This document shows, in pieces, positions 1 to 23,312 of a stretch of DNA of 64,000 bases. Numbering within the stretch: the first letter of the stretch is position 1; each line of letters starts with the position of its first letter. The notes below the pieces were generated by a model that searched no databases, had not been told where the DNA came from, and saw only the letters and a program-made list of their open reading frames with translations. The stretch is from Burkholderiaceae bacterium (GTDB lineage Bacteria > Pseudomonadota > Gammaproteobacteria > Burkholderiales > Burkholderiaceae_E). Position numbers and translations under genes: made by a program. The stretch lies in NCBI GenBank assembly GCA_036525975.1, contig DATCZK010000001.1:5-64004 (forward strand), read 5' to 3'.

Positions 1-443
1 CCGCCGGCCAGGTTCGCCACCTGCGGCGTGGCGGTGCCCGCGCCGAGCAGCCCGCTGTTGACCGTGTACGGGTCGCGCCGCACCAACTCGCCGTAGGTGG
101 CCGAGAACATCCAGTTGCCCTGGCGCTTCCAGAGGAAGTCGAGCTCGCGCGCTTCGCCCAGCACGTCGGAGCCATTAAGGCGCGTCATCGTGCCGGTGTC
201 GTCGTTGCGCCGGTAATAGTCGAAGTCGAGCAGTCCGTAGCCGTCGCGCCGGCCCAGGCCGTTGTACTGGCCGAACTGCGCGCGGTCGGCCTTGTCGCCG
301 GACACGACGCCCACGCCGGCGCTCACCGAGGCCTCCATCACGCTCTCGTCGTCGTCCGCCGCGTGCGCGGGCCCGAAGGCCGCGACCAAGGCCAGGGCGA
401 GGATGGACTGGCGCAAACCAGGGTGCCGAACGATCGTTTTCAT
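1..443 (-). CDS. mtrB: MtrB/PioB-family decaheme-associated outer-membrane beta-barrel porin (N-terminal 147 codons; continues past the window edge)
   Basis: Absent from the ORF track because it is open at the edge. Reverse complement of 443..1 reads without a stop from ATG 443..441: MKTIVRHPGLRQSILALALVAAFGPAHA/ADDDESVMEASVSAGVGVVSGDKADRAQFGQYNGLGRRDGYGLLDFDYYRRNDDTG... It has a signal peptide followed by the GVG-VS-D..FG-Y-GL pattern I associate with MtrB/PioB porins. It starts 16 nt after the mtrA stop. Confidence 0.8.
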   Translation of the reverse strand, partial: MKTIVRHPGLRQSILALALVAAFGPAHAADDDESVMEASVSAGVGVVSGDKADRAQFGQYNGLGRRDGYGLLDFDYYRRNDDTGTMTRLNGSDVLGEARELDFLWKRQGNWMFSATYGELVRRDPYTVNSGLLGAGTATPQVANLAG

Positions 444-459
444 CGCTTCGCTCCCGTTC

Positions 460-1428
460 TCATCGGAACAACAGTTGCGGCGTCGGGTTCGTGGCCGACG
501 GATTGTTCGAGCCGTGAACCTGCGTGTGGCAGTTCATGCAGCTGCGCCCCTGCCACAGGTTGACGACGTTCTTGCCGCTGGAGAGCGCCCCCACCGCCGG
601 GGCCTGGCCCGCGCCCGGCGAGGTGAACACGCCCCTCTGCCCGGCCAGCGCGCCGACCTCGCCGGCCACGTGCGGCGTGTGGCACTGCTGGCACAGCATC
701 GGCGGGCGCGACGTGAGCAGCGCAGCGATCGAGCTGCCGTGCGGGTTGTGGCAATTGGAGCAGTCTTCCACGACCGGGTCGTGCTGGAACACGAAGGGCC
801 CGCGCTTCTCGGCGTGGCAGGTGTAGCAGGTGTCGTTGGCGCTGTCGCGCTTGACGAGCTTCGGGCCGGCCGAGCCGTGCACGTTGTGGCAATCGGCGCA
901 GGTCATCTTGCCTTCGGGAATCGGGTGGCGCGAGGGCTTGAGCACCTGCGCGCGCTGCTCCTTGTGGCAGTTGTAGCAGAGGTTCACCTGCCCGGCCTTG
1001 GTGAGCGCGCGGTCTTCGTTCGTGTGGATCCGGTGGCACGACGAGCACGCGACGTCCGCCGAGGCGTGCTGGCTGCCGCCCCAGAACGCGCGCTTGGCGT
1101 CCTTGTCGTGGCAGCTCATGCAGATCTCGCTGCGCTCGGCGGGCTGCGCGCCGCCGTTTCGGCTGAACACGACGTCGGGCTTGGGCCGCTTGCTCACGCC
1201 CTCGGGCTTGTCGATGTGCGTGGGGCTCGGGCCGTGGCACGACACGCAGGTGGGCGTGCGCTTGTCCTTCTTCACCGCGTGCGCGGTCTTGCTCCAGTCG
1301 GTGAGGTCGTCCTCGTCGTGGCACTCCACGCACTGCGCCGAGATCTCGGCGTTGGTGAGCGCCCACGCGGGCGAGCACAGCCCCGCGAGAACCAGGCCGA
1401 AGACTGCAAGTGCACCGTTGATTCGCAT
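460..1428 (-). CDS. mtrA: Periplasmic decaheme c-type cytochrome, MtrA/DmsE/MtoA/PioA family
   Basis: 322 aa with a signal peptide (..CSPAWA/LT). Exactly ten CXXCH motifs: CVECH, CVSCH, CMSCH, CSSCH, CYNCH, CADCH, CYTCH, CSNCH, CQQCH, CMNCH. Size and heme density match the MtrA family. It lies between the mtrC-like and mtrB-like genes. Confidence 0.93.
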   Translation of the reverse strand: MRINGALAVFGLVLAGLCSPAWALTNAEISAQCVECHDEDDLTDWSKTAHAVKKDKRTPTCVSCHGPSPTHIDKPEGVSKRPKPDVVFSRNGGAQPAERSEICMSCHDKDAKRAFWGGSQHASADVACSSCHRIHTNEDRALTKAGQVNLCYNCHKEQRAQVLKPSRHPIPEGKMTCADCHNVHGSAGPKLVKRDSANDTCYTCHAEKRGPFVFQHDPVVEDCSNCHNPHGSSIAALLTSRPPMLCQQCHTPHVAGEVGALAGQRGVFTSPGAGQAPAVGALSSGKNVVNLWQGRSCMNCHTQVHGSNNPSATNPTPQLLFR

Positions 1429-1498
1429 GCGAACCCCTCAAAAACAAGAAGACGGGGGCCGCACGAGCGCCCCCATCGGTGATGCCATCGCGTGCTTC

Positions 1499-4087
1499 TT
1501 ACTTCTGGCCGTGGACGATGTCCACACCCTTGAAGCTGCCGCTCGAGTGGCAATCCGCGCAGATCTCCTGCGTCTTCATGCTGTCTTTCTGCGACACGCT
1601 GCCGAAGTTCCCGAAGCCCGCGCCGCCGAAGCTCGCAACGTGCCCGATCGCCTTGGCCGAGTCGTGGCACGCCGTGCAGGTGGCCGCCTTGGGCGTGATC
1701 ACCACCCAGCTGAGCGGATCGGTCTTCGCCTTCAACGTGGCCGAATCGATCGGCTTGGACACGACCGCGCCCACCGGCCCGCGGTCGATCTTGTACGAGT
1801 TGTTCACGTGGCAGACGTTGCAGTTCAGCCCCACCCCCGGCCACGCCACCTCGGCGGCGTAGTTCTCCACGCCGGAGGCGAACGGGGTGCCGGCGAGCAC
1901 CGTGGGCGTCGTGAGCCAGGGCTCGAACAGCGTGCCGGCCGGTGCCGATACCGGGTTGTTGGCGCTGGTCGAGCTCACGGCCCCCGTGGCGGCGTCCGCG
2001 AGCAGGATGCCGTCCTTGCTGAACGGACCGGCGACCTTGTTGCCGTGCGTGAACGGGAACGCGCGCTTCGAATTGCCGTGGATGCCGTGGATCATCCGCT
2101 TGAACTGGTACGACTCGGAGAGCGTGAGGCCGTTCGTCATGATCGTGGACGACATCCGGTTCGGGTCGTGGCAGACCACGCAGGCCTCGACCGCGTTGCG
2201 CGCGCCGCCGTGGAAGGCGTTGGCCAGCGTGTTCGAGCCCGAGGTCGTGCCGAGCGCGCCGTGGCACACGTTGCACTTCTCGTTGCTGACGATCTCGCGG
2301 CGCGGGTTCAACGTGCCGCTGACCGCGAACTCCTTCGACGCGTTGCGCATCACGGTGTTCACATACTCGCGCGGCACCACCTCGGGCCGCGGGTCGGTGG
2401 CCCACTTCACCTCGAGCTTGGGCTCCTTGACCTGGCCCAGGCTCACCACGCGCGCGGTGCCCTGCACGACCATGTTCGGCGTGTCGTCGGGGATCGGGAT
2501 GGTGATCGTGTAGCGGTTGCTGCCGTCGTTCACGCCGTTGGCCGCATAGGCGTTCGCGCTGCTTCCGCCGATGTTGTAGGCGGTGTACTCGGTGACCGCG
2601 AGCGGCTGCCCGAGCATCGCCGGCCACGTGACGCGGAACTGCAGGTTGCCGAACTTCGTGTTCACGGCTCCGCTGGGCGGACGGCAGACGTTGGGCGCCG
2701 GGTAGGTGCAGTCGGGCGTGACCAGGTCGTACGCGGCGTTGCCGTTGGTGGGGTCGGAGACGAAGTACTTCACCGTAACGGAGCGACCCTTGCCGTCCGC
2801 CGTGTCGTTGAACACCACGCTCTCGATGTTCATCCGGTACTTGGCGGCGTTCTCCTCGTTCTGGTTCCAGTGCACGCGCTCGGACGACCACTTCGAGCCG
2901 ACGCCGTGGCAGAAAACGCAGTTCGCGTTCGTGAGGTCCTTGGCGACAGATCCGGGCCCGACGAGCGTCTCCGCGGCTGCCTTGTGGACCGTGTCCCAAT
3001 CAGAGCCGGCCTTGTTGGCGTGGCAGGTGAGGCACGCCTCCTTGCTCACCACCTTCTTCCAGTTGTCGCCCTGCGGCGTGGCCGGGTTCGAGCCGTCGTG
3101 GCACTTGGTGCAGTTGCGCAGGTCTTGCGGGAAGCCGACCTCGGCGTAGGGGTGCTTGCTGTCGCGGTAGCCCCAGATCGTGTAGTCCTCGCCGCCTTTG
3201 CCGTCGTCGAGCGCCTTCTTGAGCAGCCGGCCCGAGTGGATCTTGTGCACCATCGTGGCCATCGTGAGCACGTTGCCGCTCTCGGGGTCGGTGGTGCCGG
3301 GGTTGTGGCACATCACGCAATACTGGGTGTCCACGCGCCCGCCGCCGTGCAGCGCGAGCTTCTCGTGGCAGCCGTTGCACGACGACACGTCGGCCATCTT
3401 GCGCGTCTTGCCCGGGTCGGTCACGGCCACCGACTTGCCGCTGGCGTCGAAGGTCACGTCGAAGTAAGGGTTCACGCGCACCGTCTCGCCGGCGGCGTTC
3501 GTGTAGCTCAGCTGGATCGCGATCCGGTGCGTGCGGTTGGGCTCGAACACCGCGCCGTTGGTCTTGGTGGGATCGGTGACGTCGGTCTTGAAGGTGTAGG
3601 TGTAGTAACCGTCGTCGTTGTAGACGAGCGTGCCGCCGGAGTCGGTGGACGCCTGGCGCGCGGTGGCGAGCACCGGAGTGCCGCCTGGTCCGTAGCCGGC
3701 CTTGCCGGTGACCTCGTTCGAGACGTAGTTCACCCACTGGTCGGGGTTGCCGCCAGTGCCGGGCACGAGCTTGACCAACGCCAGGCGCGCGTTGCTCGTG
3801 GTGAGCGTCTTCACCACGGCGCCGTCGGAGAACACGGTGAAGTTCACCTGCGGCGGGCTGTTCACGACCACCGCGGGCACGCCGGCGTTCTGGAGAACGG
3901 TGAAGGGCGCCGCCGAGTTCTCGGCGCTGTCGTTCGCCAGGTTCGCCGCCGCCGCTGCGATCACTTCCTTGAGCGTGGTCGGATTCGGGGGGGGCGTCAC
4001 GGGGTCGCTGCTGCCGCCCCCGCCGCAGGCCGCCAGGCTCAACGCGATCGCCAGTGGAAGACCGAACCTCAGGATTGCCGACTTCAT
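1499..4087 (-). CDS. mtrC: Decaheme c-type cytochrome lipoprotein, OmcA/MtrC-like (outer-surface terminal reductase type)
   Basis: Start taken at the internal MKSAILRFGLPLAIALSLAAC (lipobox LAAC followed by GGGGSS), giving 862 aa. Ten CXXCH motifs fall in two blocks of five (residues about 237-394 and 605-847). They are separated by a roughly 210-aa heme-free stretch and preceded by a roughly 215-aa heme-free N-terminal domain, which is the four-domain MtrC/OmcA layout. A Cys pair (DCTYPAPNVC) sits in the central heme-free domain. Confidence 0.8.
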   Translation of the reverse strand: MKSAILRFGLPLAIALSLAACGGGGSSDPVTPPPNPTTLKEVIAAAAANLANDSAENSAAPFTVLQNAGVPAVVVNSPPQVNFTVFSDGAVVKTLTTSNARLALVKLVPGTGGNPDQWVNYVSNEVTGKAGYGPGGTPVLATARQASTDSGGTLVYNDDGYYTYTFKTDVTDPTKTNGAVFEPNRTHRIAIQLSYTNAAGETVRVNPYFDVTFDASGKSVAVTDPGKTRKMADVSSCNGCHEKLALHGGGRVDTQYCVMCHNPGTTDPESGNVLTMATMVHKIHSGRLLKKALDDGKGGEDYTIWGYRDSKHPYAEVGFPQDLRNCTKCHDGSNPATPQGDNWKKVVSKEACLTCHANKAGSDWDTVHKAAAETLVGPGSVAKDLTNANCVFCHGVGSKWSSERVHWNQNEENAAKYRMNIESVVFNDTADGKGRSVTVKYFVSDPTNGNAAYDLVTPDCTYPAPNVCRPPSGAVNTKFGNLQFRVTWPAMLGQPLAVTEYTAYNIGGSSANAYAANGVNDGSNRYTITIPIPDDTPNMVVQGTARVVSLGQVKEPKLEVKWATDPRPEVVPREYVNTVMRNASKEFAVSGTLNPRREIVSNEKCNVCHGALGTTSGSNTLANAFHGGARNAVEACVVCHDPNRMSSTIMTNGLTLSESYQFKRMIHGIHGNSKRAFPFTHGNKVAGPFSKDGILLADAATGAVSSTSANNPVSAPAGTLFEPWLTTPTVLAGTPFASGVENYAAEVAWPGVGLNCNVCHVNNSYKIDRGPVGAVVSKPIDSATLKAKTDPLSWVVITPKAATCTACHDSAKAIGHVASFGGAGFGNFGSVSQKDSMKTQEICADCHSSGSFKGVDIVHGQK

Positions 4088-4200
4088 TGTGTTCTCTCTG
4101 GTTCCATCACACACACAAAGCGGCCGGATCGTCTCCGGCCGCCGCTGGTTCCGCGCGTACGGCGCGAGCTACTTCATCGTTCGACTCCCGCCCCGCATCG

Positions 4201-4830
4201 CTACTGCAGGCTGGCTCTTGGCTGCGACCCCGCCACCGGCACGCGCGGGATCTTCAGCCGCTCGCGCAGCTCGACCGGTCCGTCGCCCTCGGGCTCGGTA
4301 TGGGCGATGCCGTAGTGGCACTCGATGCAGGTCCAGCCCTCGGCGCGCGCCTTGGCGTGCCGCGTCTGCGCCTTCTCGGTCTGCTTCTCCTTGTCCATCT
4401 TCTCGAAGGTGTGGCAGTTGCGGCACTCGAGCGAGTCGGTCTCGAGCATGCGCACCCAGACGCGCTCGGCGAGCATCGCACGGTGCGCGTCGTACTTCTC
4501 CTTCGTGTCGATCACGCCGCGAATGTGGCCGATGACCTCGAAGGTGGCGCGCATCTTGCGCAAGATGAGCGGCACCGGCTCGTGCGGCACGTGGCAGTCC
4601 GTGCAGATCGCGCGCACCCCGGTGCGGTTCGTGTCGTGGACGGTGCCGCGGTACTCCTTGTAGGGGTTGTCGCGCATCTCGTGGCAGCCGATGCAGAACT
4701 CCTCGGTGCTGGTCACGGCGAGGCCGTAGGCCCCGCCGATCGCCATCAGCATCGCGGCGAACAGGCCGGCCACCCCGAGGCCGAGGTAGAGCTTCCACTT
4801 GCGGCGTGGGGAGGCCGTTGGAGATGCCAT
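4201..4830 (-). CDS. cymA: NapC/NirT/CymA-family membrane-anchored tetraheme cytochrome c (quinol dehydrogenase)
   Basis: 209 aa. N-terminal transmembrane helix (KLYLGLGVAGLFAAMLMAIGGAYGL). Four CXXCH motifs (CIGCH, CTDCH, CRNCH, CIECH) with NapC/NirT-like spacing. Confidence 0.85.
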   Translation of the reverse strand: MASPTASPRRKWKLYLGLGVAGLFAAMLMAIGGAYGLAVTSTEEFCIGCHEMRDNPYKEYRGTVHDTNRTGVRAICTDCHVPHEPVPLILRKMRATFEVIGHIRGVIDTKEKYDAHRAMLAERVWVRMLETDSLECRNCHTFEKMDKEKQTEKAQTRHAKARAEGWTCIECHYGIAHTEPEGDGPVELRERLKIPRVPVAGSQPRASLQ

Positions 4831-4892
4831 CGTCGAACCTCGATCTGGGTCGGTACCGGTTCACCCCGCGCCGCGAACCGCGGCGCGCGGAA

Positions 4893-5228
4893 TCAGCGCG
4901 AGAGGATGTACTCGATCACGTTCTTGATCGCCGCCTCGTCCTTGGTCTTCATGATCGCGTGCTTCTCTTCCTTGCCGTCGACCTTGATCGTGGGGCCGGT
5001 GGTGAGGTGCTTGTGCAGCTTCGCCGCGGCGTCGGGCTTGCCCTTCAACTCGGCGGCCGTTTCCTTGTAGGCGGGGCCGTCTTTCTTCTTGTCGGCCGAG
5101 TGGCACTTCGTGCACTTCTCTTTCTTGAGCAGCGCGGTGGCCGCTTCCTCGTCGACCGCGGCGTTGGCGGTGTTGGACAACACGAACAGCGCCGCGGCGG
5201 CTGCCGTGAGCATATGCACTGCTTTCAT
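4893..5228 (-). CDS. Periplasmic monoheme class I cytochrome c (c551/c552-like)
   Basis: Only the last 111 codons of track ORF 4893..6254 look real: MKAVHMLTAAAAALFVLSNTANA/AVDEE..KCTKCHSADKKKDGPAYKETAAELKGK... It has a signal peptide and a single CXXCH. The CH..(K)GPAYK..AAK pattern is shared with Pseudomonas cytochrome c551. ATG at 5228..5226. Confidence 0.8.
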   Translation of the reverse strand: MKAVHMLTAAAAALFVLSNTANAAVDEEAATALLKKEKCTKCHSADKKKDGPAYKETAAELKGKPDAAAKLHKHLTTGPTIKVDGKEEKHAIMKTKDEAAIKNVIEYILSR

Positions 5229-5351
5229 CTGCTTCTCCCGTGTTATTCGGTTCGATGGGCGTGGGCCCACGATTCGGCCCAAGGGTACCTGAACGACGCG
5301 CTCCGTCAACGAGCGCGCGCCCGAATTCAGACCATGTTGCATCGCGCGAAC

Positions 5352-5392
5352 AATATGACAAATCGGCAAATTCTCAAATTGACAAGTATCAA
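5352..5392 (-). promoter_or_regulatory. FNR/Anr-type box plus -10 element (class II geometry) upstream of the cytochrome operon
   Basis: On the gene strand: TTGATACTTGTCAA (5392..5379; consensus TTGAT-N4-ATCAA, one mismatch), then 21 nt, then CATATT (5357..5352). It lies in the only clearly AT-richer gap of the region (5229..5449), about 150 nt upstream of the ATG at 5228. Confidence 0.45.
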
Positions 5393-5449
5393 TGCGCCGC
5401 CCGCCTGCCGCGGGGTATGAGAGGCGCCTGCCCGTGTCGACAAGGGCCC

Positions 5450-6358
5450 TCAGCCGCGCACCGCGTGTTCCGGCGGCGCGACCGGCTCCACCGTCACGCG
5501 CACGTCGAGCCGCTGCTCGTCGCCGCCGCGCACCACGCCGCGCAGCGGCGGCACGTCGCGGTAGTCGCGCCCCCACGCGAGGGTGACGAACTCGAGGTCG
5601 GCGAGCTTCGCGTTGGTGGGGTCGGCGTCCACCCAGCCCAGCCCCGGGCACCAGGCCGAGACCCACGCGTGCGACGCGTCGGCCCCGACCAGACGCGGCT
5701 TGCCCGGCGGGGGCGTGGTGAGGATGTAGCCGCTCACGTAGCGCGCCGGCAAGCCGAGCGAGCGCAGCGCGCTCACCATCAGGTGCGCGAAGTCCTGGCA
5801 CACCCCGCGCCGGTTCTCGAGCAGCGTCGTGACCGGCGTGGACACGGTGGTGGCGACCGGGTCGAACTCGAACTCGCCGTGGATCAGCCGCGCAAGGCCC
5901 TGCAGGGCCTGCAGCCAGGGCCGGCCGGGCTCGAACGCGCGCCGGCCGAATTCGGCGGCGCCGGGCAGCAGCGGCGCGAACGGCGAGGGCGCGAGGTACT
6001 GGGCCAGCTCGTAGCGCCGTGCGTGAGGTCCCCCGGCGGCATCGTCGCAGACGATCTCCCAGGGGGGCGAAACGGCGCCGGACGCCGGCGCGCGCGCGGC
6101 CACCTCCACCAGCGACCGCGCCCGCACCAGCAGCACGTCGTGCGGCCGGGCCACCAGGAAGCGCCTGAGCGGATTGCCGAAGTAGTCGAGCGAGCGCTCG
6201 ATCTCCGAAGGCTGGGGTTCGACCTCGAGGCTGTGCTCGAGCAACCGCTGCCACACGGTTGCGCGTGGCTCGAGGTGCACGAGTTGCCAGGCGTGCACGA
6301 CCGACGACTCGTAGTGGTACTCGGTTTCGTGCGTCACCTGATAGCGCGCGCCGGCCAT
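5450..6358 (-). CDS. Transglutaminase-family protein (Bact_transglu_N plus transglutaminase core)
   Basis: 302 aa. It begins MAGARYQVTHETEYHYESSV, the typical N-terminal transglutaminase-associated domain. The core carries catalytic-type Cys/His/Asp motifs: RRGVCQDFAHLMVSALRSLGLPARYVSGY ... SHAWVSAW.PGLGWVDADPTN. Confidence 0.9.
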   Translation of the reverse strand: MAGARYQVTHETEYHYESSVVHAWQLVHLEPRATVWQRLLEHSLEVEPQPSEIERSLDYFGNPLRRFLVARPHDVLLVRARSLVEVAARAPASGAVSPPWEIVCDDAAGGPHARRYELAQYLAPSPFAPLLPGAAEFGRRAFEPGRPWLQALQGLARLIHGEFEFDPVATTVSTPVTTLLENRRGVCQDFAHLMVSALRSLGLPARYVSGYILTTPPPGKPRLVGADASHAWVSAWCPGLGWVDADPTNAKLADLEFVTLAWGRDYRDVPPLRGVVRGGDEQRLDVRVTVEPVAPPEHAVRG

Positions 6359-6368
6359 CCCACCCCCT

Positions 6369-8825
6369 TCAGGTGCCGAGCGCGTGCTGGCGCACGGCGT
6401 CGCCGTGGCTGAACACCCGCTCGTTGAATCGCTCGCCGAGCTGCGTTGCCGCTGCGCGCAGGTCGGCGACGAGCGCGAGCAGCCGCGCGGCGTCGGGGTC
6501 GAGGTCGGCGCCCGGGTCGAGCGACTGCAGCCGCGCGAGCAGCGGTTCGAACAGGTCGCTCCCGCAGGGGCCCACCAGCTTCTCGAGCCTGCCCAGGAAG
6601 TCCACCAGCCCCTTCACCTGGAACATCACCGCGCGCGGGTTGTTCGCGTCGAGCACGAGCAGGTCGAGCACCGGCAGCCACTCGGGGCTGCCGAGGTATC
6701 GCGAGCGGTAAGTGATCGTGGAGTCGGCAAGAGACACCAGCCAGCCGAGGCCCGAATCCCGGCCTTCGGTCATGGCGGCCTCGAGCGCCAGGCACAGCGA
6801 ACCGAGGCGCTCGACCCGCCTGCCGATCGACAGGAATCGCCAGCCGGTGTCGCGCGTCATTGCGTCGAGCACGAAGCCCGACTGGGTCATCAGGCTGCCC
6901 ACGACGCGGTCGAGCCAGCCCGCGGCCTGCGACAGGCTGAGCGGCCTGCCGAAGGCGTGATCCTGCACGAGCCGGTTGAGCGTGCGCCAGTGGTCGTTCG
7001 AGATGCGGTCGCGCAGCGTGAACCCGGCGGCGGACATCCGGCGCAGGCACTGCGCGAGGCCGCCGGGGCGCTGCTCGATCGACGCGGCGGCGAGCAGCGC
7101 GGCGCCCGCGTTCTCGTCGTCCGCCAGCAGGTTCGAGCGGCGACACAGCGCGACCAGCGCGGTGGTGGCCGCCGGGTCTTCGTCGGGCTCGGTCAGCACC
7201 GTGTTCAGGGCGATGCGCAGCAGCCGCGCGATGTCTTCGCTGCGACTCGCGTAGCGCCCGAACCAGAACAGGTTCTCGGCGACCCGCGACGGTATCGAGG
7301 TTCCGGCCCGCACCAGGTCGGCCGGGCCCACGGTGCGCCCGAGCAGCGTGATCGCGGTGTTCACGGGGCCCGCGGCCATCACCCAGGTGTCTTTCGACGA
7401 GCCGCCGCGCTGCATCGACACCACGCGCACGTTGCGCCGCCCCGCAACGCGCGTGAGCCCCCCCGGCATCACCGCGTAGCCGCGCTCGCGCGCCGCCGCG
7501 AACACCCGAAGGCTCATCGCGCGCGCGGCGAGCTCGCCGCCGTTGGCCGCCTCCAGCGCCGGCACGAGCGACAGGTGCACGAGCTCCTGGGCAACGTAGC
7601 GCTCGGGGTTCGCCCGCACGCGATCGCGAAACCGCTCCGCCTCCTCCCCTTCGAGGTCTTCCCCGAACACCGGGTCGAAACGAAACGCCGGGGTGGCCGG
7701 CTTGAACACCAGCGACTCGAAGCGGTTGAAGGCCTCGTCCAGCGCCGCGGGCTCGCCGCACCACCAGGTGGCCACCGACGGCAGCTCGAGCGCCTCGCCC
7801 AGCAGGTGCTGGCTGAGCGCGGGCAGGTAGCCCAGCAGCGAGCCCGACTCGAGCACGCCGGTGCCCAGCGCGTTGGCCACCAGCACGGTGCCGCGGCGCA
7901 TGCACTCGGCGAGCCCGGCCACGCCCAGCGTGGAGTCGGCGCGCAACTCGAGCGGGTCGCACAGGTCCTCGTCGAGGCGACGCAGGATCGCGTGCACGCG
8001 GCGCGGGCCCTCGAGCGTCTTGAGCCAGACCTTGGCTTCGCGCACGGTGAGGTCGGCGCCCTCGACCATCGGGAACCCGAGGTAGCGCGCGAGGATCGCG
8101 TGCTCGAAGTAGGTCTCGTGGTAAGGCCCCGGCGTGAGCAGCACGGTGAGCGTCGCGCCGTCGCCCCCGGGCGCGAGCCGCGCCATCGAAGCCCGCATCG
8201 CGTCGAAGAAGCCGGCCAGCCGCTCCACGTGCATCGCACGGTACGGCTCGGGAAAGATCCGCGACACGATCATGCGGTTCTCCACCGCGTAGCCGGCGCC
8301 TGAGGGCGCCTGCGTGCGGTCCGACAGCACCCACCAGCGGCCGTCGGGCGAGCGCGCGAGGTCGGCCGCGAACAGGTGCAGGAACACGCCGCCCGGCACC
8401 CGCGCGCCGTGCGCGGCGCGCATGAAGCCGCCCGGGCCGAACACCAGCGCGGGCGGGATCATCCCGTCGCGAAGGATGCGCTGCGGCCCGTAGAGGTCCG
8501 CGAGGATCGCGTTGAGCAGCCGGGCGCGCTGCGCGACCCCCGAAGCGATCATCTCCCACTCGTGCGCCGGGATCACCATCGGCAGCGGGTCGAGCTCCCA
8601 CGGCCGGTTCACGCCCTTCGGGTCGGCGTACACGTTGTAGGTGATGCCGATGTCCTGCACCTGGCGCTCCACCGCGGCGAGCCGGTCGCGGATCGCCAGC
8701 GGGCCGGTTTCCGAGAGCGAGGAGAGGAGCTGCGCCCATTGCGCCCGCGGCCGCTCGGGCGTTTCCATCAGCTCGTCGAAGCGCGTCCTCGCGGTGGCGT
8801 ACGAGGCGAGCAGGTCGGTAGGCAT
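6369..8825 (-). CDS. Fusion protein: circularly permuted type-2 ATP-grasp domain (N-terminal about 480 aa) plus alpha-E domain (C-terminal about 310 aa)
   Basis: 818 aa. The N-terminal half has the pattern of the CP_ATPgrasp_2/DUF404-407 proteins (..ITYNVYADPKG..RPWELDPLP.. ; ..YHETYFEHAILARYLGFPMVEGADLTV..). The C-terminal half matches alpha-E (..SRVAENLFWFGRYASRSEDIARLLR..; ..STITYRSRYL..). There is a 2-nt gap to the upstream gene and a 10-nt gap to the downstream gene. Confidence 0.9.
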   Translation of the reverse strand: MPTDLLASYATARTRFDELMETPERPRAQWAQLLSSLSETGPLAIRDRLAAVERQVQDIGITYNVYADPKGVNRPWELDPLPMVIPAHEWEMIASGVAQRARLLNAILADLYGPQRILRDGMIPPALVFGPGGFMRAAHGARVPGGVFLHLFAADLARSPDGRWWVLSDRTQAPSGAGYAVENRMIVSRIFPEPYRAMHVERLAGFFDAMRASMARLAPGGDGATLTVLLTPGPYHETYFEHAILARYLGFPMVEGADLTVREAKVWLKTLEGPRRVHAILRRLDEDLCDPLELRADSTLGVAGLAECMRRGTVLVANALGTGVLESGSLLGYLPALSQHLLGEALELPSVATWWCGEPAALDEAFNRFESLVFKPATPAFRFDPVFGEDLEGEEAERFRDRVRANPERYVAQELVHLSLVPALEAANGGELAARAMSLRVFAAARERGYAVMPGGLTRVAGRRNVRVVSMQRGGSSKDTWVMAAGPVNTAITLLGRTVGPADLVRAGTSIPSRVAENLFWFGRYASRSEDIARLLRIALNTVLTEPDEDPAATTALVALCRRSNLLADDENAGAALLAAASIEQRPGGLAQCLRRMSAAGFTLRDRISNDHWRTLNRLVQDHAFGRPLSLSQAAGWLDRVVGSLMTQSGFVLDAMTRDTGWRFLSIGRRVERLGSLCLALEAAMTEGRDSGLGWLVSLADSTITYRSRYLGSPEWLPVLDLLVLDANNPRAVMFQVKGLVDFLGRLEKLVGPCGSDLFEPLLARLQSLDPGADLDPDAARLLALVADLRAAATQLGERFNERVFSHGDAVRQHALGT

Positions 8826-8827
8826 CG

Positions 8828-11800
8828 TCAGGAGCCGCGTCGCAGGTCGAGCGTGAAGGGGTAGTTCGGGTTCTGCGGCTGCGTCTCGAGCGCCACCTGG
8901 CCGGGCGTGTGCCCCGTCCGGAAGAAGCGGGCCAGCCGCCGCGCCTCAGCCTCGTAGGCGTTGACCGGGAAGGTCTGGTAGTTGCGCCCGCCGGGATGCG
9001 CGACATGATAGCGGCACCCGCCCATCGAGCGGCCCATCCAGCCGTCGACCAGGTCGAAGGTGAGCGGCGCGTGCGGCGCGATCGTCGGGTGCAGGCTCGA
9101 GGCCTGCTGCCACGCGCGGTAGCGCACGCCCGCGACGAACTCGCCCGCGTTGCCGGTGGGCTGGAGCGGCACCCGGCGCCCGTTGCAGTAGATCGCGTGC
9201 CGGTCGTCGATCAGGCCGTGCACCTTCACCTGCAGGCGCTCGAGCGTTGCGTCGACGTAGCGCGCCGTGCCGCCGGGCGCGCCCTCCTCGCCCATCACGT
9301 GCCAGGGCTCCAGCGCCAGCCGCAGCTCCACCTCGACGTTGCGCGCGGCGAAGTCCCCCAACCGCGGGAACCGGAACTCGAAGTGCGGCGCGAACCACTC
9401 GGCCTGCAGCGGGTAGCCCAAGGCCGCGGTCTCCTCGATCACGTCGGCGAAGTCGTCCCAGACGAAATGCGGCAGCATGAAGCGGTCGTGCAGCTCGGTG
9501 CCCCATCGCTTGAGCCGCGCGGGTCGGTAGGGTTGCCGCCAGAAGCGCGAGACCAGCGCGCGCATCAGCAGCTGCTGCGCGAGGCTCATCCGCGCGTGCG
9601 GCGGCATCTCGAAGGCGCGCATCTCCAGCAGCCCGAGCCGCCCGGTGGCGCTGTCGGGCGAGTACAGCTTGTCGATGCAGAATTCCGCGCGGTGGGTGTT
9701 GCCGGTCACGTCCACCAGCAGGTGGCGCAGCAGCCGGTCGATCTGCCAGGGCGGCAGGCTCGGCCCGGCCTGCGACTGCAGCCGCTCGAGTTCGCGAAGC
9801 GCGATCTCGATCTCGTACACCGATTCGTGCCGCGCCTCGTCGATTCGCGGCGCCTGGCTGGTGGGCCCGATGAACAGGCCCGAGAACAGGTACGACAGCG
9901 ACGGGTGGTTGTGCCAGTACGCGACCATGCTCGCGAGCAGGTCGGGCCGGCGCAGGAAGGGCGAATCGCCCGGCGTCGCGCCGCCCAGCACGAAGTGGTT
10001 GCCCCCGCCCGTGCCGGTGTGCCGCCCGTCGATCATGAACTTCTCGCTCGACAGGCGCGTGTGGTGGGCGGCCTCGTAGAGGAACGTGGTCTGCTCGACC
10101 AGCATCCGCCAGTTGTGCGCCGGGTGGACGTTCACTTCGATCACGCCCGGGTCGGGCGTCACGCGCAGCACGGCGAGCCGCGGGTCGCGCGGCGGCTCGT
10201 AGCCCTCCACCACCACCGGCAGGCCCGTCTCGTGCGCGGTGGCCTCGATCGCGGCCACCAGCTCGAGGTAGTCCTCCAGCGCGCTGGTGGGCGGCATGAA
10301 CAGGTGCAGGCGGCCGGCGCGCGTCTCCGCGCACAGCGCCGTGCGCGTGATGTCCGCGGCCGACTCGAACATCGCGGGCGCGCGCTCGTCGGCGGGCGTC
10401 TCGAGGCCGCCCGCTTGCGCAGCGGCGGCGGACGCTGCGCGCGCGCCCGGCGAAACGCCCGCACCCGGCGGCTGCATCAGGATCTGCGCGTGCGAGGGCA
10501 AGGGCGGGAACGACTGCGTCGGGTCCGGCGCGTGCACCCACGGATAGTCCGAGGGCGCGACCCAGGGCTGCGAGTCGAGCGGCAGGCGAAAGCCGATCGG
10601 GGAGTCGCCAGGCACCAGGTAGCAGCGCTCGTCGCGCAGGAACCATCGGCCGCTGCGCCAGCGGCGCGGCCCCTGGCTCGCGCGCGCCACCGGCAGGACG
10701 TGGCCCGCCGGCTTGTCGAGTCCCTCGGTGAAGATGCGGCGAATGCGCGCGCGCTCCTGCGCGTCCTCCAGGCGCGAGTCGAAGGGGTCGACGTTCACCG
10801 GCAGGCGGCGCTCGCGCCAGAGGTAGTACCAGCTGTCCTCGAAGGCGGGAAAGACCAAGCCCGGGTCGAGACCCAGCCTCGCGGCCACGCGCGCGAGAAA
10901 AGCCTGCGACTGCGCGGCCGTGACGCCGTAGTCGGCCTCGTCGTCGGCGATCAGCGCCGGGTCCGACCACACCGGCTGGCCGTCCTTGCGCCAGAACAGG
11001 TTCAGCGACCAGCGCGGCAGCGGCTCGCCGGGGTACCACTTGCCCTGGCCGAAGTGCGACAGGCCCGTGGGCGCGTAGTGGTCGCGCAGCCGCGCGAGCA
11101 GCTCGCCGGCGCGCTTGCGCTTCAGTGGCCCCAGCGCCGCGGTGTTCCACTCCGCGCCGTCGCGGTCGTCGATCGAGACGAAGGTGGGCTCGCCGCCCTG
11201 CGTGAGCCGCACGTCGTTGGCATCGAGGTCTTCGTCGATGCGATGCCCCAGCGCCTCGATCTGCGCCCACTGCGCCTCGGAATAGGGCTTGGTGACGCGG
11301 GGCGCCTCCCAGATCCGCTCCACGCGCATCGCGTGCGAGAACTCGCATTCGGCCGGTTCCACCAGGCCGGTCACGGCAGCCGCCGACGCCGGGTCGGGCG
11401 AGCACGCCACCGGGATGTGCCCCTCGCCCGCGAGCAGCCCCGAGGTGGGGTCGAGCCCGATCCAGCCCGCGCCGGGGAGGTAGACCTCGCACCATGCGTG
11501 CAGATCGGTGAAGTCGGCCTCGGCCCCCGAGGGGCCGTCGAGCGACTTCACGTCGGGCTTGAGCTGGATCAGGTAGCCGGAAGCGAAGCGGGCCGCCAGC
11601 CCGAGGTGGCGAAGGAGCTGCACCAGCAGCCAGCTCGTGTCGCGGCACGACCCCTCGCCGAGCGCGAGCGTCTGCTCGGGCGTCTGCACGCCGGGCTCGA
11701 GCCTGACCAGGTAGCGCGTGTCGGCCTGCAGCTTGCGGTTCACCTCGACCAGGAAATCCACGGTGCCCGTCTCGGGGCGCCGGAGCGCGTCCAGGTACTG

Positions 11801-12184
11801 CGCGAAGCGCGGGGTCGCGGGCTGCCTGACGAGGTACGGCGCGAGCTGGTGGAGCTCGTCGTCGGTGTAGCGGAACGGGAACTTCTCGGCGTAGGGCTCG
11901 AGAAAGAAGTCGAAGGGATTGAACACCGACATCTCGGCGACGAAGTCGACCTCGATCCGCAACGCGTCGGTCTTGTCCGGAAACGCCAGCCGCGCGAGGT
12001 AATTCGCCTGCGGGTCCTGCTGCCAGTTGATGAAGTGCCCGGCCGGCTCGACCCGCATCGAATAGCTGAGGATGCGCGTGCGCGAGTGCGGGCACGGGCG
12101 CAGCCGCACGATCTGCGGGCCGAGCGCGACCGGCCGCTCGTAGCGGTACGACGTGAGGTGATTGAGCGCTACGTGGATCGACAA
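8828..12184 (-). CDS. Large transglutaminase-family protein with a DUF2126-type C-terminal region
   Basis: Sequence shows ..SIHVALNHLTSYRYERPV.. (Bact_transglu_N), EGSCRDTSWLLVQLLRHLGLAARFASGY ... LHAWCEVYLPGAGWIGLDPTSG (transglutaminase core), then a roughly 800-aa conserved extension. The ORF runs to 12229. I prefer TTG at 12184 because GGAG lies 7 nt upstream and homologs as I recall them begin at MSIHV. The start is uncertain by 15 codons. Confidence 0.88.
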   Translation of the reverse strand: MSIHVALNHLTSYRYERPVALGPQIVRLRPCPHSRTRILSYSMRVEPAGHFINWQQDPQANYLARLAFPDKTDALRIEVDFVAEMSVFNPFDFFLEPYAEKFPFRYTDDELHQLAPYLVRQPATPRFAQYLDALRRPETGTVDFLVEVNRKLQADTRYLVRLEPGVQTPEQTLALGEGSCRDTSWLLVQLLRHLGLAARFASGYLIQLKPDVKSLDGPSGAEADFTDLHAWCEVYLPGAGWIGLDPTSGLLAGEGHIPVACSPDPASAAAVTGLVEPAECEFSHAMRVERIWEAPRVTKPYSEAQWAQIEALGHRIDEDLDANDVRLTQGGEPTFVSIDDRDGAEWNTAALGPLKRKRAGELLARLRDHYAPTGLSHFGQGKWYPGEPLPRWSLNLFWRKDGQPVWSDPALIADDEADYGVTAAQSQAFLARVAARLGLDPGLVFPAFEDSWYYLWRERRLPVNVDPFDSRLEDAQERARIRRIFTEGLDKPAGHVLPVARASQGPRRWRSGRWFLRDERCYLVPGDSPIGFRLPLDSQPWVAPSDYPWVHAPDPTQSFPPLPSHAQILMQPPGAGVSPGARAASAAAAQAGGLETPADERAPAMFESAADITRTALCAETRAGRLHLFMPPTSALEDYLELVAAIEATAHETGLPVVVEGYEPPRDPRLAVLRVTPDPGVIEVNVHPAHNWRMLVEQTTFLYEAAHHTRLSSEKFMIDGRHTGTGGGNHFVLGGATPGDSPFLRRPDLLASMVAYWHNHPSLSYLFSGLFIGPTSQAPRIDEARHESVYEIEIALRELERLQSQAGPSLPPWQIDRLLRHLLVDVTGNTHRAEFCIDKLYSPDSATGRLGLLEMRAFEMPPHARMSLAQQLLMRALVSRFWRQPYRPARLKRWGTELHDRFMLPHFVWDDFADVIEETAALGYPLQAEWFAPHFEFRFPRLGDFAARNVEVELRLALEPWHVMGEEGAPGGTARYVDATLERLQVKVHGLIDDRHAIYCNGRRVPLQPTGNAGEFVAGVRYRAWQQASSLHPTIAPHAPLTFDLVDGWMGRSMGGCRYHVAHPGGRNYQTFPVNAYEAEARRLARFFRTGHTPGQVALETQPQNPNYPFTLDLRRGS

Positions 12185-12272
12185 GGTGGAGCTCCGTGGG
12201 TTGTGGACGACCGGGCGCGCGGCCCGCAAGTGCGCGCGCGCGCCGGCGCGCGCTCACCGATCGCCGCGCCGG

Positions 12273-12641
12273 TCATCGCTGCGCGAATGCCCCCGGGCCC
12301 GGCGCCCGCGGGAGCTGCGCGCGCTCGGACTTGCACACGCCCGGCGGGCAGGGGTAGTGATAGTAGCGATCGTTCAGGTAGCGCGAGACCGCGTCGATCT
12401 CCTCGTCGAGCCACACCGCGCCGAGCTCGCGATCCCAGCGCACCACGAACGCCCTGATCTCGGCGAAAGACCGCGCCGCGCGCGGGTTTCGCTGGTGCAC
12501 GCTGCGGTCGTGACAGAGCCCGCAGCGCATCTCGTACAGCACGCGTCCGCGAGCGGTCTCCGGGCTCTGGGCGACGGCGCCCGGCGCGGCGAGCGACAGC
12601 GCCGCCTGAACAACCGCCACCGCCACAACCCTGCCGAGCAT
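12273..12641 (-). CDS. Small secreted c-type cytochrome (single CXXCH), family unclear
   Basis: Start taken at MLGRVVAVAVVQAALSLAAPGAVA/QS (signal peptide). A single CGLCH motif is present. The composition is non-degenerate, unlike the Arg-rich overlapping frames. I could not recognise a family. Confidence 0.55.
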   Translation of the reverse strand: MLGRVVAVAVVQAALSLAAPGAVAQSPETARGRVLYEMRCGLCHDRSVHQRNPRAARSFAEIRAFVVRWDRELGAVWLDEEIDAVSRYLNDRYYHYPCPPGVCKSERAQLPRAPGPGAFAQR

Positions 12642-12741: not shown

Positions 12742-14919
12742 CTATTTGAGCTCGATCGTGACCGAGCTCTCGCCGACGTTGCCGGCCGCGTCGAAGGCGC
12801 GGGCCGTGATCGTCCACTGCCCGGGCGAAACCTTGCGCGCGTTCCAGTTCACCGAATAGGGCGCGCCGGCGTCGGTGCCCACCAGTTGCCCGTTGGCGTA
12901 GAACTCCACGCGCGCAACCCCGTCGCTGTCGGTGGCGCTGGCCGCGAGCGAGACCCGCCCGCGCTTGAGCACCGCCCCCGCCGACGGGCTGGTCACCGAG
13001 ACCACCGGCGCCACCGCGTCGCTGAACACGACGTAGGTTCCGGTGGCCGACGCGCTGCCGCCGCCCGCCGCCGAGTCGGTGGCGCTCGCCGTGATCGCGT
13101 ACGCGGCGTCGGCGGCCGTGGTTGCCGAAGTCACCGACCAGGTCAGGGTCGCGCTCGCGCCGGGCGCCAGCGCGACGGCCGACGGCGCGAACGAACCCGA
13201 GAGGGCGCCGGGCAGCGCCTGGGTCATGCTGAACGTGCTGCCCGGGCAGGCCGCGCTGTTGCGGTTGGTCACGGTGGCGGTGTACTGCCTGGTCTGGCCG
13301 GGCGCGCCCGACTGGCTCGGCGGGCTGAGCGAAACGGCGGGGGCCGACGGGGTGCACGCCGGCGTGCCGCTCGCCACCGCGACGGTGGCCGCGCCGCCGC
13401 TGATCGACTGCACCGTGACCGAGACGCCGTTCGCCGCGTCGCTGAAGGTGCCGCCCGGGCCGAGCGCGGCGAGGAAATAGGTCTTGCTGCCCAGCGCGCC
13501 GTTGGAGCGGTGCACGCTGATCTGGTTCTTGTAGCCGCTCGAGAGGTTGAAGTCGAAGCCGTCGCCGGTGCGCAGGCTCAGGTAGTAGTGCTCGCCCGTG
13601 TCGGGCTTGGCGATGCGCAGGATCTGCGCGGCGGTCGACGCCGTGTTCGACGTGGACACGATCGAGTACGAGCCGCTCGAGCTCGCGTCGACCACGGTGC
13701 CGGTGGGCTGCCAGCCCGCGGCGATCCGGTTCGACGCGTTGAACTGCACCATCCGCGCACCGCCCATCGGGTCCGAGCCGTCGCCGTACTCGGCGCCGGG
13801 CGTGGCGGCGTGGTGGAAGCGCAGGTTGTGGCCGATCTCGTGCACGAACACGCCGGTGCTGCAGGTGGCCACCCACGACTGCGTGGGGAACGACCCGCCG
13901 AGGTAGGCGAGCCCCGCCCACCCGCAGCTGCTCACCGGCGGGATCGCGTACGAGATGCGCCGGTAGCTCGACAGGTTGATTCCGGCCGCCTGCGCGGCGG
14001 CCTTGAGCGCGCTGCCCCAGCCCGTGTAGTCGCAGGCGCCGCCCGACGAGTAGCCGATGTTGAAGGGTCCGACCACCTGCCCGGAGAACGACACGAGGTC
14101 GCGCGAGGTTTCCCTGTACAGGCGGTTGAGCGACGCGACGCTCGCGTCGGCGCTGAACAGGTTCGTCGCCACCTGCCCGGTGCCGCAGCTGAAGGCCTTG
14201 TCGGTGAAGTTCGCGGCGATCACGAGCGTGGTCTCGTTCACCGGCGCTGCGAGCGGCGTGGACGAAGTCGTGCTGGTCGAGCCCGAGGTGCCTCCGCCGG
14301 AACCGCCGCCCTTATTCGGCGCCGCCAGCGTCTCGACATTGCGGCGGTGGCCCACGACGAGGTGGTCCTTCAACAGCACGCCGCGGATCTTCACGTAGCT
14401 GTCCACGAGCTGGCGCAGCTCGTCGGCCGACAACGAAGCGTCGGCGGCGTCGATGTTCAGCCGCGTGGTCGTGCCGCTGGCGCTCACCTCGAGGAAGAAG
14501 TCCTCGCGCGTGCGGCCGTTGGCGAAGTCGTCGCTCACGCGCCCGAGCACCTTTCCGGTGGCGTCCACTTCCTGCTCCAGCCCGGCCGCGAGCGCCGCCG
14601 GGACCTTCGCGCGCAGCGATCCGGGAAGCGCCGCGAGCAGCACCTTCTCCGGGTTGCTCTTGACGATCGAGTACAGCGCCGCCTGGCGTTGCGCGATCTG
14701 CTCGAGCAGCTGCTGCTGCACCTGCGGCTTGTCCTTCGCCTCGGCGCGCTGCAGCCGTCGCAGGGTCGCGAGCATCTGGTTGGTGAGCACGGTGGCGGTC
14801 TCCCCGGCCGCGGGCTCGGGCTCGTGCGGCCCGTCGTGCGCGTGCGACGGCGAGATCGTCGCGGCAAGAAGGAACAGCGCCGCGATCGCGGCGCGCGGGA
14901 AGTTTCGGGATGCCGGCAT
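12742..14919 (-). CDS. Secreted zinc metalloprotease, metzincin-like (gametolysin/M11-like HExxHxxxxxH), with C-terminal Ig-like domains
   Basis: 725 aa with a signal peptide (..LLAATISPSHA/HDG). There is a Gly/Ser/Thr linker (GGGSGGGTSGSTSTTSST). The zinc motif is VFVHEIGHNLRFHHA, followed by GDGSDPMG. The C-terminus looks like Ig-like repeats (..VARVEFYANGQLVGTDAGAPYSVNWN..). Confidence 0.8.
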   Translation of the reverse strand: MPASRNFPRAAIAALFLLAATISPSHAHDGPHEPEPAAGETATVLTNQMLATLRRLQRAEAKDKPQVQQQLLEQIAQRQAALYSIVKSNPEKVLLAALPGSLRAKVPAALAAGLEQEVDATGKVLGRVSDDFANGRTREDFFLEVSASGTTTRLNIDAADASLSADELRQLVDSYVKIRGVLLKDHLVVGHRRNVETLAAPNKGGGSGGGTSGSTSTTSSTPLAAPVNETTLVIAANFTDKAFSCGTGQVATNLFSADASVASLNRLYRETSRDLVSFSGQVVGPFNIGYSSGGACDYTGWGSALKAAAQAAGINLSSYRRISYAIPPVSSCGWAGLAYLGGSFPTQSWVATCSTGVFVHEIGHNLRFHHAATPGAEYGDGSDPMGGARMVQFNASNRIAAGWQPTGTVVDASSSGSYSIVSTSNTASTAAQILRIAKPDTGEHYYLSLRTGDGFDFNLSSGYKNQISVHRSNGALGSKTYFLAALGPGGTFSDAANGVSVTVQSISGGAATVAVASGTPACTPSAPAVSLSPPSQSGAPGQTRQYTATVTNRNSAACPGSTFSMTQALPGALSGSFAPSAVALAPGASATLTWSVTSATTAADAAYAITASATDSAAGGGSASATGTYVVFSDAVAPVVSVTSPSAGAVLKRGRVSLAASATDSDGVARVEFYANGQLVGTDAGAPYSVNWNARKVSPGQWTITARAFDAAGNVGESSVTIELK

Positions 14920-17901: not shown

Positions 17902-17904
17902 GGA

Positions 17905-20375: not shown

Positions 20376-20391
20376 CCGCGCATGACCCCGA

Positions 20392-21438: not shown

Positions 21439-21495
21439 TTCAATACCTCCTGGTTCAACGATCGAAAAAGGGTTGATTCGGGAACGCGCGGTCGA

Positions 21496-22785: not shown

Positions 22786-23312
22786 GGCGCGACGTGCTCG
22801 GGGTGCAGCCCGATGCGCGCCTGGTCGCGCACCGCGACCAGCGCGAGCTGGACGGCGGCGAGCGCCGCGGCCACCGGCACCGCGGCGAAGGGCAGCGCCT
22901 TGCTCATGCCGTAGATCATCGTGAAGGTGCGCGCGCCGCGCTCGGTGAGGCCCACGCCGTAGACGATGAGCAGCACGAAGAACGCGATGCCGAGCAGGTC
23001 GATGAGCAGCAGCAGCGCGCGGCGCGCCGCCAGCGGCAGCGCCGCGAACAGCATCTGCACGCCGATGTGCTCGCGCCGCGTGATGCCGCACGAGACCGCG
23101 AGCAGAGCCACCCAGATCATCAGGTAGCGCGCCGCCTCCTCCATGAACGTGATCGGCAGCGGCCAGACGTAGCGCACGATCACGCCGAGCCAGACGTCGA
23201 GCACGAGCACCACCATCAGCGCCACGCAGACGCGGTCGATCACGCGCGTGAGCCACTCGCTCGCGTTGTGCGCCTTCAGCGCCGCGCCGCCGAGCCCGGT
23301 CATGTCCCACAT
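22782..23312 (-). CDS. dctQ: TRAP transporter small permease (DctQ family)
   Basis: 176 aa with four hydrophobic helices. It sits immediately upstream of dctM and overlaps it. The start could be M1 or M4. Confidence 0.85.
   Translation of the reverse strand: MWDMTGLGGAALKAHNASEWLTRVIDRVCVALMVVLVLDVWLGVIVRYVWPLPITFMEEAARYLMIWVALLAVSCGITRREHIGVQMLFAALPLAARRALLLLIDLLGIAFFVLLIVYGVGLTERGARTFTMIYGMSKALPFAAVPVAAALAAVQLALVAVRDQARIGLHPEHVAP

Follow-up and report, generated by a model that had tools for sequence, protein, structure and literature searches.

A probable Group 4 MtrCAB porin–cytochrome cluster preceded by a conserved FNR-type box in a Burkholderiaceae bacterium

Mtr-type electron conduits allow bacteria to respire or feed on solid Fe and Mn minerals and on electrodes. 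MtrCAB systems have been sorted into seven groups, one of which, Group 4, consists almost entirely of Betaproteobacteria, mostly Burkholderiales (Baker et al. 2022, PMC8805035). In that survey, homologues of mtoC and mtoD stood beside mtrCAB almost exclusively in Group 4, a cymA gene lay inside the cluster in some members of nearly every group, and Group 4 clusters often adjoined frdABCD and ccm genes; mtrCAB was also argued to be mobile. Self-contained loci, which unite mtrCAB with genes for a quinol dehydrogenase and a periplasmic carrier, had already been described in Vibrio and Aeromonas (PMC8805035). Group 4 includes the Fe(III) reducer Albidoferax (Rhodoferax) ferrireducens T118, which is listed in Table S1 of the survey with MtoD-1 and MtoD-2 (PMC8805035), and two cymA genes together with mtrH have been reported in the mtrABC cluster of R. 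ferrireducens (PMC6295460, citing Shi et al. 2012). Here we describe a five-gene mtr cluster at one end of a 64,000-nucleotide stretch from a Burkholderiaceae bacterium (assembly GCA_036525975.1, contig DATCZK010000001.1, positions 5 to 64,004), hereafter the window, and compare it with these systems.

All five genes of the cluster lie on the minus strand in the order mtoD-like–cymA-like–mtrC–mtrA–mtrB, as indicated by the open reading frame (ORF) listing and by direct translation. This order is already on record. Table S1 of Baker et al. lists under Group 4 a contig of Limnobacter sp. AS06rmzACSIP_596 (JAAZBL010000211.1) with MtrB NLD69081, MtrA NLD69082, MtrC NLD69083, CymA-beta NLD69084 and MtoD NLD69085, the products of five consecutive genes (PMC8805035), and a tblastn comparison showed that this contig, locus L026 of our set, has the same order as the window. 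The cluster is therefore a fresh example of a layout catalogued in 2022 and no new architecture. An earlier reading, made from the letters of the window without database searches (the sequence-only reading), had presented it as a mixture of two architectures. Its observation that mtrC is combined in cis with a monoheme gene, which encodes an MtoD homologue, and a tetraheme gene was borne out by the gene content, and its suggestion of novelty gives way to the Limnobacter record. We consider it probable, on homology, that the locus is a Group 4 Burkholderiales-type Mtr porin–cytochrome cluster that encodes an electron conduit and is under FNR-type control.

The intergenic gaps within the cluster are exactly 62, 113, 70 and 16 nt, and the five co-directional genes were all found at the positions given in the sequence-only reading. 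Each gene begins with ATG preceded by a purine-rich stretch, and all five frames are open, with full sets of heme motifs (Table 1). GC content at third codon positions (GC3) is 0.93–0.97 in every cluster gene, the same as in the remainder of the window, and the overall GC content of the cluster is 0.65–0.69, against 0.71–0.74 in the flanks. Families were assigned with NCBIfam and Pfam profile models at their curated cut-offs. Together with the heme counts and targeting signals, these models supported the gene identities proposed earlier, apart from the labels of the two small cytochromes discussed below.

Table 1 Features of the mtr cluster and its upstream region in the window
Feature	Position	Strand	Description
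Monoheme cytochrome	4893-5228	-	111 aa; 1 CXXCH; Sec signal ending ANA/AV (cleavage between the two)
Tetraheme NapC/NirT protein	4201-4830	-	209 aa; 4 CXXCH; one N-terminal hydrophobic membrane helix
mtrC	1499-4087	-	862 aa; 10 CXXCH; lipobox LAAC, Cys21
mtrA	460-1428	-	322 aa; 10 CXXCH; signal peptide
mtrB, 5' part	1-443	-	first 147 aa; signal peptide; no Cys; open to window edge
Putative FNR/CRP-family box TTGATACTTGTCAA	5379..5392	-	TTGAT-N4-ATCAA with 1 mismatch; ~157 nt upstream of the mtoD-like ATG
Putative sigma-70-like promoter, TTGAGA-16 nt-TATTGT	5350..5377	-	in the 221-nt gap preceding the mtoD-like gene
GC-rich hairpin (stem of 10 bp, 8 of them G-C) with TTTGTGTGTG (also UUUGUGUGUG) after it	4119..4143	-	in the 113-nt cymA–mtrC gap; U/G-rich tail

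The OmcA/MtrC-family models, which the sequence-only reading had named as the check on its 862-residue protein, recognized MtrC at 580 bits (TIGR03507, cut-off 209), with residues 73–859 aligned to positions 2–672 of the 672-position model. PF22113 matched twice and PF22112 once (117–211), and the hemes are arranged in a 5 + 5 layout, at 237–390 and 605–843. The sole cysteines outside the heme motifs and the lipobox are Cys460-X7-Cys468 in domain III, a pair kept in 74–78 of 84 homologues. In Shewanella, the disulfide in domain III is linked to flavin binding. The relatives of MtrC in the PDB are MtrF, OmcA, UndA and MtrC, all weaker matches than that of MtrA, which shares 44% identity with S. 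baltica MtrA (6R2Q_A, E = 5.6e-59) and scored 298 bits with the DmsE/MtrA model TIGR03508 (cut-off 192).

The window holds only the N-terminal 147 residues of MtrB. This fragment scored 48 bits with PF11854 and 56 bits with TIGR03509, under the full-length cut-off of 240 because the window edge cuts the gene, and it gave no match among PDB chain sequences. The mtrB frame of L081, a metagenome contig with 99.65% identity to the window, runs on without a stop for at least 724 residues, and its product exceeds the cut-off at 440 bits, covering positions 2–639 of the 662 in the model. MtrB measures 694–736 residues in relatives with the same architecture, so only about 25 C-terminal residues lie beyond the available contigs; every metagenome contig that carries the cluster stops inside mtrB. 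By these matches, MtrB is predicted to be the outer-membrane barrel, MtrA the periplasm-facing decaheme and MtrC the surface decaheme lipoprotein.

The sequence-only reading was right that the two small cytochromes are a monoheme protein and a four-heme NapC/NirT protein, whereas its finer labels did not hold: the 'c551-like' protein is of MtoD type, and the tetraheme is of ImoA type. The monoheme protein matched PF00034 (38 bits), with CTKCH at residues 39–43. Its best PDB match was MtoD of Sideroxydans lithotrophicus ES-1 (4XXL; E = 1.4e-23, 47–48% identity over the whole chain), and ordinary c551/c552 structures gave E values of 1e-7 or worse. An unusual trait of MtoD, whose potential is +155 mV, is its bis-His ligation, via His47 and His95 (PMC4412085). 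The counterpart of MtoD His95 in the window protein is His90, a residue found in 54 of 54 homologues from the neighbourhood of related mtr clusters. The protein is thus predicted to be a soluble periplasmic class I cytochrome of the MtoD type with bis-His ligation. Met93 (codon 4950–4952), three residues past the distal His90, is absent from the other 53 homologues, and a change to His/Met ligation via this residue is conceivable. The identity of the protein as a His/Met c551 was rejected because the distal His never varies and no homologue shares Met93.

The tetraheme protein scored 216 bits with PF03264 (NapC/NirT; threshold 24). With the NapC equivalog model NF007906 it reached 194 bits (cut-off 349) and with the TorC model TIGR02162 203 bits (cut-off 478), and identity as NapC or TorC was rejected since both scores fall far under the curated cut-offs. 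Its heme-I motif, CIGCHEM, is of the CXXCHXM form, and the Met is kept in 21 of 23 homologues. NrfH, ImoA (the ES-1 'CymA') and some of the NapC proteins share this motif, which Shewanella CymA lacks (PMC13390432). Residues His65, Lys92, His158 and His177 are invariant in all 23 homologues, and their spacing of 27, 66 and 19 equals that of ImoA His74/Lys101/His167/His186, ImoA being compared by its reported residue positions. Together these features argue for a quinol/quinone oxidoreductase that sits in the inner membrane, belongs to the NapC/NirT family and is of the ImoA or 'CymA-beta' type. In Shewanella, ImoA itself can take over the role of quinol oxidase from CymA; it titrates from 0 to −400 mV (PMC13390432).

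Relatives of the cluster were collected by an MtrC scan of one genome per species across 185,579 reference species, which returned 218 relatives; the best 80 loci were analysed. As the sequence-only reading had expected of a high-GC betaproteobacterial host, all 80 came from Burkholderiales-type genomes or metagenome-assembled genomes (MAGs), at 56–66% MtrC identity. They represent Rubrivivax, Piscinibacter, Ramlibacter, Caenimonas, Paucibacter, Rhodoferax, Polaromonas, Ideonella, Limnobacter and unnamed Burkholderiales. With a maximum identity of 66%, the host species lies outside the reference set. Several of these relatives are Group 4 members in Table S1, namely Caenimonas koreensis (65% MtrC identity, L011), Limnobacter (62%), Ideonella sp. 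A 288 (61%, L039) and Ramlibacter lithotrophicus (59%, L054), and the Shewanella Mtr proteins are much more distant from those of the window. The accessory genes directly upstream of mtrC, an mtoD homologue and a CymA-beta-type gene, also match the published description of Group 4 (PMC8805035). Jointly with the explanation given above and with the same confidence, we place the cluster in MtrCAB Group 4, a placement by nearest neighbours rather than by a formal tree, and an affinity to the Betaproteobacteria of Group 3 is conceivable.

Among the 80 loci, the exact order monoheme cytochrome–cymA–mtrC–mtrA–mtrB was found in six (L002, L003, L005, L010, L021 and L026), which include Piscinibacter (L003), the isolate Paucibacter soli AS307 (L005), Zeimonas (L021) and Limnobacter (L026); two more loci have it in partial or variant form (L001 and L050). 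Both small cytochrome genes lie within 10 kb of mtrCAB in about 18 loci, the MtoD homologue stands directly before mtrC with no tetraheme gene between in about 20, and about 30 have neither gene within reach. The region 3' of mtrB differs among the loci of exact order. In Paucibacter soli (L005, 15935–21583) the sizes and order of the ORFs fit a ccm operon, and in Piscinibacter (L003, 16396–19697) they resemble frdABCD. A membrane protein of 212–218 residues is encoded at L002:15721–16359 and L021:15824–16480, where its gene overlaps or abuts the mtrB stop.

Upstream of the first gene lies a gap of locally AT-rich sequence that contains a putative sigma-70-like promoter and a candidate FNR/CRP-family box (Table 1). 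The promoter-like site is the only one in positions 1–6500, against a mean of 0.3 in shuffled sequences. Allowing at most one mismatch, the FNR box has 2 matches in the 64-kb window, with 0.16 expected. By coordinates only, its centre lies ~42 nt upstream of the start site predicted from the −10-like hexamer, and this position between consensus matches and a predicted start would correspond to class II FNR geometry. In 42 of the 80 related loci the box recurs upstream of an mtoD-like or mtrC start, at a distance of no more than 350 nt. There are 91 matches in the 1.35 Mb of these loci, 46 of them within those 350-nt upstream windows, and many are perfect palindromes; as a composition control, 19 other half-site permutations gave 0–2 hits each in the same upstream windows. 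The box is also identical in four near-identical metagenome contigs. Its conservation points to control by oxygen limitation through an FNR/Anr-type regulator, and transcription would be on when oxygen is scarce because the box stands at class II distance from a promoter-like site. In the literature searched we found no report that links FNR to Group 4 mtr clusters, and Baker et al. do not mention FNR (PMC8805035).

The hairpin in the cymA–mtrC gap was considered as a conserved terminator and rejected: it is not kept in loci of the same architecture, and only L002 has a comparable stem. It may act as an attenuator or as an RNA-stability element of the upstream transcript, and we give it little weight because it is not conserved in relatives. 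Given its presence, it is unproven that all five genes form one transcription unit.

In an exact-sequence look-up, MtrA and MtrC were absent from the records and, of these proteins, only the tetraheme sequence was recorded; it is present in exact form on 23 metagenome contigs. Four contigs (L081–L084) were compared with the window. They are 99.6–99.8% identical to it over up to 14 kb, free of gaps and unchanged in gene order. The monoheme gene, the tetraheme gene and the 221-nt upstream region show zero differences, and the differences in mtrC are mainly at synonymous sites. With intact frames, GC3 values like those of the rest of the window and mostly synonymous changes in mtrC, the cluster genes look functional. 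The differences from L081–L084 are concentrated in the 5' end of mtrB (window 1–500) and in the mtrC segment at 2001–2500. This clustering, together with the contig ends in mtrB, suggests strain-level diversity or an assembly-breaking paralogue in the surface-exposed parts.

Based on homology to MtrCAB and CymA of Shewanella and to Mto of Sideroxydans, the tetraheme protein would exchange electrons with the quinone pool. Periplasmic carriers, either the MtoD homologue or cytochromes encoded elsewhere or both, would bridge it to MtrA, and MtrA inside MtrB would pass electrons to or from MtrC at the surface, where insoluble Fe and Mn minerals, humics or electrodes would be the partners. An FNR/Anr-family regulator would switch the cluster on under low oxygen. 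The ES-1 monoheme PmcA interacts with both ImoA and MtoA (PMC13390432, a 2026 study), and in Shewanella without FccA and STC, both monohemes, MtoD and PmcA, could carry electrons from CymA to MtrA (PMC13390432). No PmcA-like gene is adjacent to the cluster in the window, and the link may for this reason rely on the MtoD homologue or on distant cytochromes.

The conduit is intrinsically reversible: Mtr and Mto modules run in both directions, and MtoA and MtrA are not cleanly separated in trees. The caution in the sequence-only reading that gene content cannot tell the direction of electron flow was upheld. We put the chance that the main role is outward, in mineral or humic respiration under oxygen limitation, at about even. 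Fe(II)-oxidizing isolates with MtoAB are without MtrC, and the window has MtrC. Leaning the same way are the Fe(III) reducer T118 within Group 4, the quinol-oxidase ability of ImoA, the frd and ccm neighbours in the group and the FNR-type box.

Several points weigh against this outward, FNR-controlled reading. The motif TTGAT-N4-ATCAA is read by several sensors of the CRP/FNR family, which respond to O2, NO and other signals. The promoter and the box are consensus matches only, and FNR-type activation also fits microaerobic lithotrophy. In ES-1, MtoD interacts with neither ImoA nor MtoA (PMC13390432), and its authors propose that MtoD feeds a terminal oxidase. Given this lack of interaction, the proposal of the sequence-only reading that every step from the quinol pool to the surface is encoded here is unproven. 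In addition, R. lithotrophicus expresses mtrCAB in a Mn(II)-oxidizing co-culture, and Ideonella sp. A 288 and Burkholderiales bacterium JOSHI_001 deposit metal oxides (PMC8805035).

Some of these points lend themselves to a mainly inward conduit, in which Fe(II), Mn(II) or reduced minerals would give up electrons to MtrC and MtrAB, the high-potential monoheme would deliver them to a cbb3-type or other terminal oxidase, and the ImoA-type tetraheme would feed a fraction to the quinones. The invariant His of the MtoD-type monoheme, the +155 mV potential and proposed oxidase role of MtoD, and the ImoA-like CXXCHXM motif of the tetraheme are consistent with such a route. So is the wider record: the strain that expresses mtrCAB on Mn(II), R. 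lithotrophicus RBP-2, belongs to Group 4, seven Gallionellaceae MAGs have mtrC together with mtoAB, Rhodoferax MIZ03 both oxidizes and reduces iron and has mtrABC, and the FNR boxes are compatible with microaerobic induction. However, no MtrC-bearing isolate has been shown to oxidize with MtrC, and the Fe(III) reducer T118 sits in the same group. In the window, neither autotrophy nor oxidase genes adjoin the cluster, and no PmcA-like low-potential second monoheme is seen beside the tetraheme; in ES-1, MtoA and ImoA are coupled through PmcA. We therefore regard a mainly inward role as possible but doubtful, and what probability the outward and inward roles leave falls to the use of both directions.

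It is very unlikely that the tetraheme is instead a NapC/NirT/TorC-type dehydrogenase for a soluble reductase of nitrate, nitrite or trimethylamine N-oxide, with the monoheme as a general carrier and both as mere neighbours of mtrCAB. The cymA–mtrC hairpin could split two transcription units, MtoD of ES-1 lacks interaction with MtoA or ImoA, and the NapC and TorC models do return E values of 1e-57 to 1e-64 for the tetraheme, but its scores stay far below their cut-offs (194 against 349 and 203 against 478). No nap, nir or tor genes were found in the first 25 kb by Pfam, and no other CXXCH-rich protein in the window. In 6 species representatives, and in the 2 partial or variant cases, mtrC has the cytochrome–cymA pair directly upstream; about 18 of the 80 loci have the pair no more than 10 kb from mtrCAB, and about 20 more have the MtoD homologue directly before mtrC. 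The FNR box stands upstream of the entire array, ahead of its first gene. Still more improbable is a decaying, non-functional remnant of a horizontally acquired island. Such an origin would be in keeping with the lower GC content of the cluster relative to its flanks, with the mobility of mtrCAB argued by Baker et al. and with the ends of all matching metagenome contigs within mtrB. Yet the five frames are open, the heme motifs are complete, curated cut-offs are passed and ligand residues are conserved; codon usage is host-like, the strain differences in mtrC are mostly synonymous, and neither transposases nor integrases turned up among the genes examined on the visible side, where Pfam covered the first 25 kb and genes farther on were read from their N-terminal sequences only.

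A wider proposal can be made tentatively, at a confidence well short of that for the Group 4 assignment. The mtoD-(cymA)-mtrCAB clusters of Group 4 may form an FNR/Anr regulon in which the MtoD-type monoheme serves as a second periplasmic exit, to a terminal oxidase. If this is true, ordinary heterotrophic Burkholderiales would have one FNR-induced module for both microaerobic electron uptake from Fe(II) or Mn(II) and anaerobic mineral reduction.

The neighbours of the cluster in the window resemble ordinary metabolic and housekeeping genes. No ccm, frd, nap or mobile-element genes, and no functions in cytochrome maturation or export, were seen in the window (Pfam over the first 25 kb and, beyond that, a CXXCH screen and N-terminal sequences only), and Rfam and tRNA scans of the window gave no matches. 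Directly upstream of the mtr genes, at 5450–12229 on the minus strand, lies a four-part conserved cluster. Its products include one that is transglutaminase-like, one that combines a circularly permuted ATP-grasp with alpha-E, and a large one of the Bact_transglu_N / DUF2126 kind. Flank synteny with the related loci is confined to L024, which shares part of this transglutaminase cluster near its own mtr cluster. About 7 kb from the mtr genes, a 122-residue ORF at 12273–12641 (minus strand) has a signal peptide, a single CGLCH and no Pfam match, and may encode a small c-type cytochrome. At 12742–14919 (minus strand) lies a gene for a 725-residue secreted protein with Peptidase_M11 (gametolysin) and Big_7 domains, as assigned by Pfam on the identical L081 gene. 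Further on, at 16966–23312 (minus strand), genes for a tripartite ATP-independent periplasmic (TRAP) transporter, DctPQM, occur with those for a carbon-nitrogen hydrolase, an M20 peptidase and a pyridoxal-phosphate-dependent enzyme, adjoined by an RpiR-type regulator. The segment resembles an ordinary catabolic island and seems to have no connection with the mtr cluster.

The Group 4 version of the conduit is widespread in genomes from soil, groundwater and wastewater, with relatives in at least 218 species-level genomes. The window adds an apparently intact example from a species that is outside the reference genome set and yet recurs at 99.6–99.8% identity in several metagenomes. The conserved FNR-type box predicts a condition for expression, oxygen limitation, and Paucibacter soli AS307 is a cultured strain with the same five-gene layout that could be used for genetics.

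Compared with the named systems, the window shares with Shewanella MtrCAB (S. baltica, 6R2Q) the three-part outer-membrane module, a tetraheme NapC/NirT partner in the inner membrane, the 5 + 5 hemes of MtrC and the Cys pair in its domain III. In Shewanella, cymA is unlinked to mtrCAB, CymA is without the CXXCHXM Met and the periplasmic carriers are the tetrahemes STC and FccA, whereas in the window the cymA-type gene is linked, its product has CXXCHXM and the carrier is a monoheme. The MtrC of the window is also ~190 residues longer than that of Shewanella. An N-terminal CXXC motif of MtrB has been reported for metal-reducing Gammaproteobacteria; MtrB of the window, with no Cys in its first 147 residues, is without it. 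The Mto system of S. lithotrophicus ES-1 shares with the window the MtoD homologue, the ImoA-type tetraheme and the decaheme and porin families. Unlike the window, ES-1 is without mtrC, and its imoA is adjoined by the gene for PmcA, a low-potential His/Met monoheme that has no adjacent counterpart in the window.

The Vibrio and Aeromonas loci of Group 2 (cymA or netBCD, pdsA and mtrCAB) likewise gather the whole set in one place, but their carrier is the diheme PdsA, their tetraheme is of the 'CymA-gamma' type and their hosts are Gammaproteobacteria, whereas the carrier of the window is of MtoD type. A. ferrireducens T118 is a betaproteobacterial Group 4 case, as the window probably is, with cymA within the mtrABC cluster; it differs in having two cymA genes, a CbcL-like mtrH and more cytochromes, where the window has one tetraheme, one monoheme and no visible CbcL-like gene. 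The Rhodoferax-type loci among the 80 place mtoD directly before mtrC with no cymA between, unlike the window. The Limnobacter contig differs in genus and in its flanking genes, but its five genes are those of the window, in unchanged order and orientation. Its MtrC is of ~860 residues with 10 hemes, identities to the window are 58% for the monoheme cytochrome, 72% for the cymA product, 62% for MtrC, 70% for MtrA and 65% for the N-terminus of MtrB, and an FNR-like box stands ~146 nt upstream of its mtoD.

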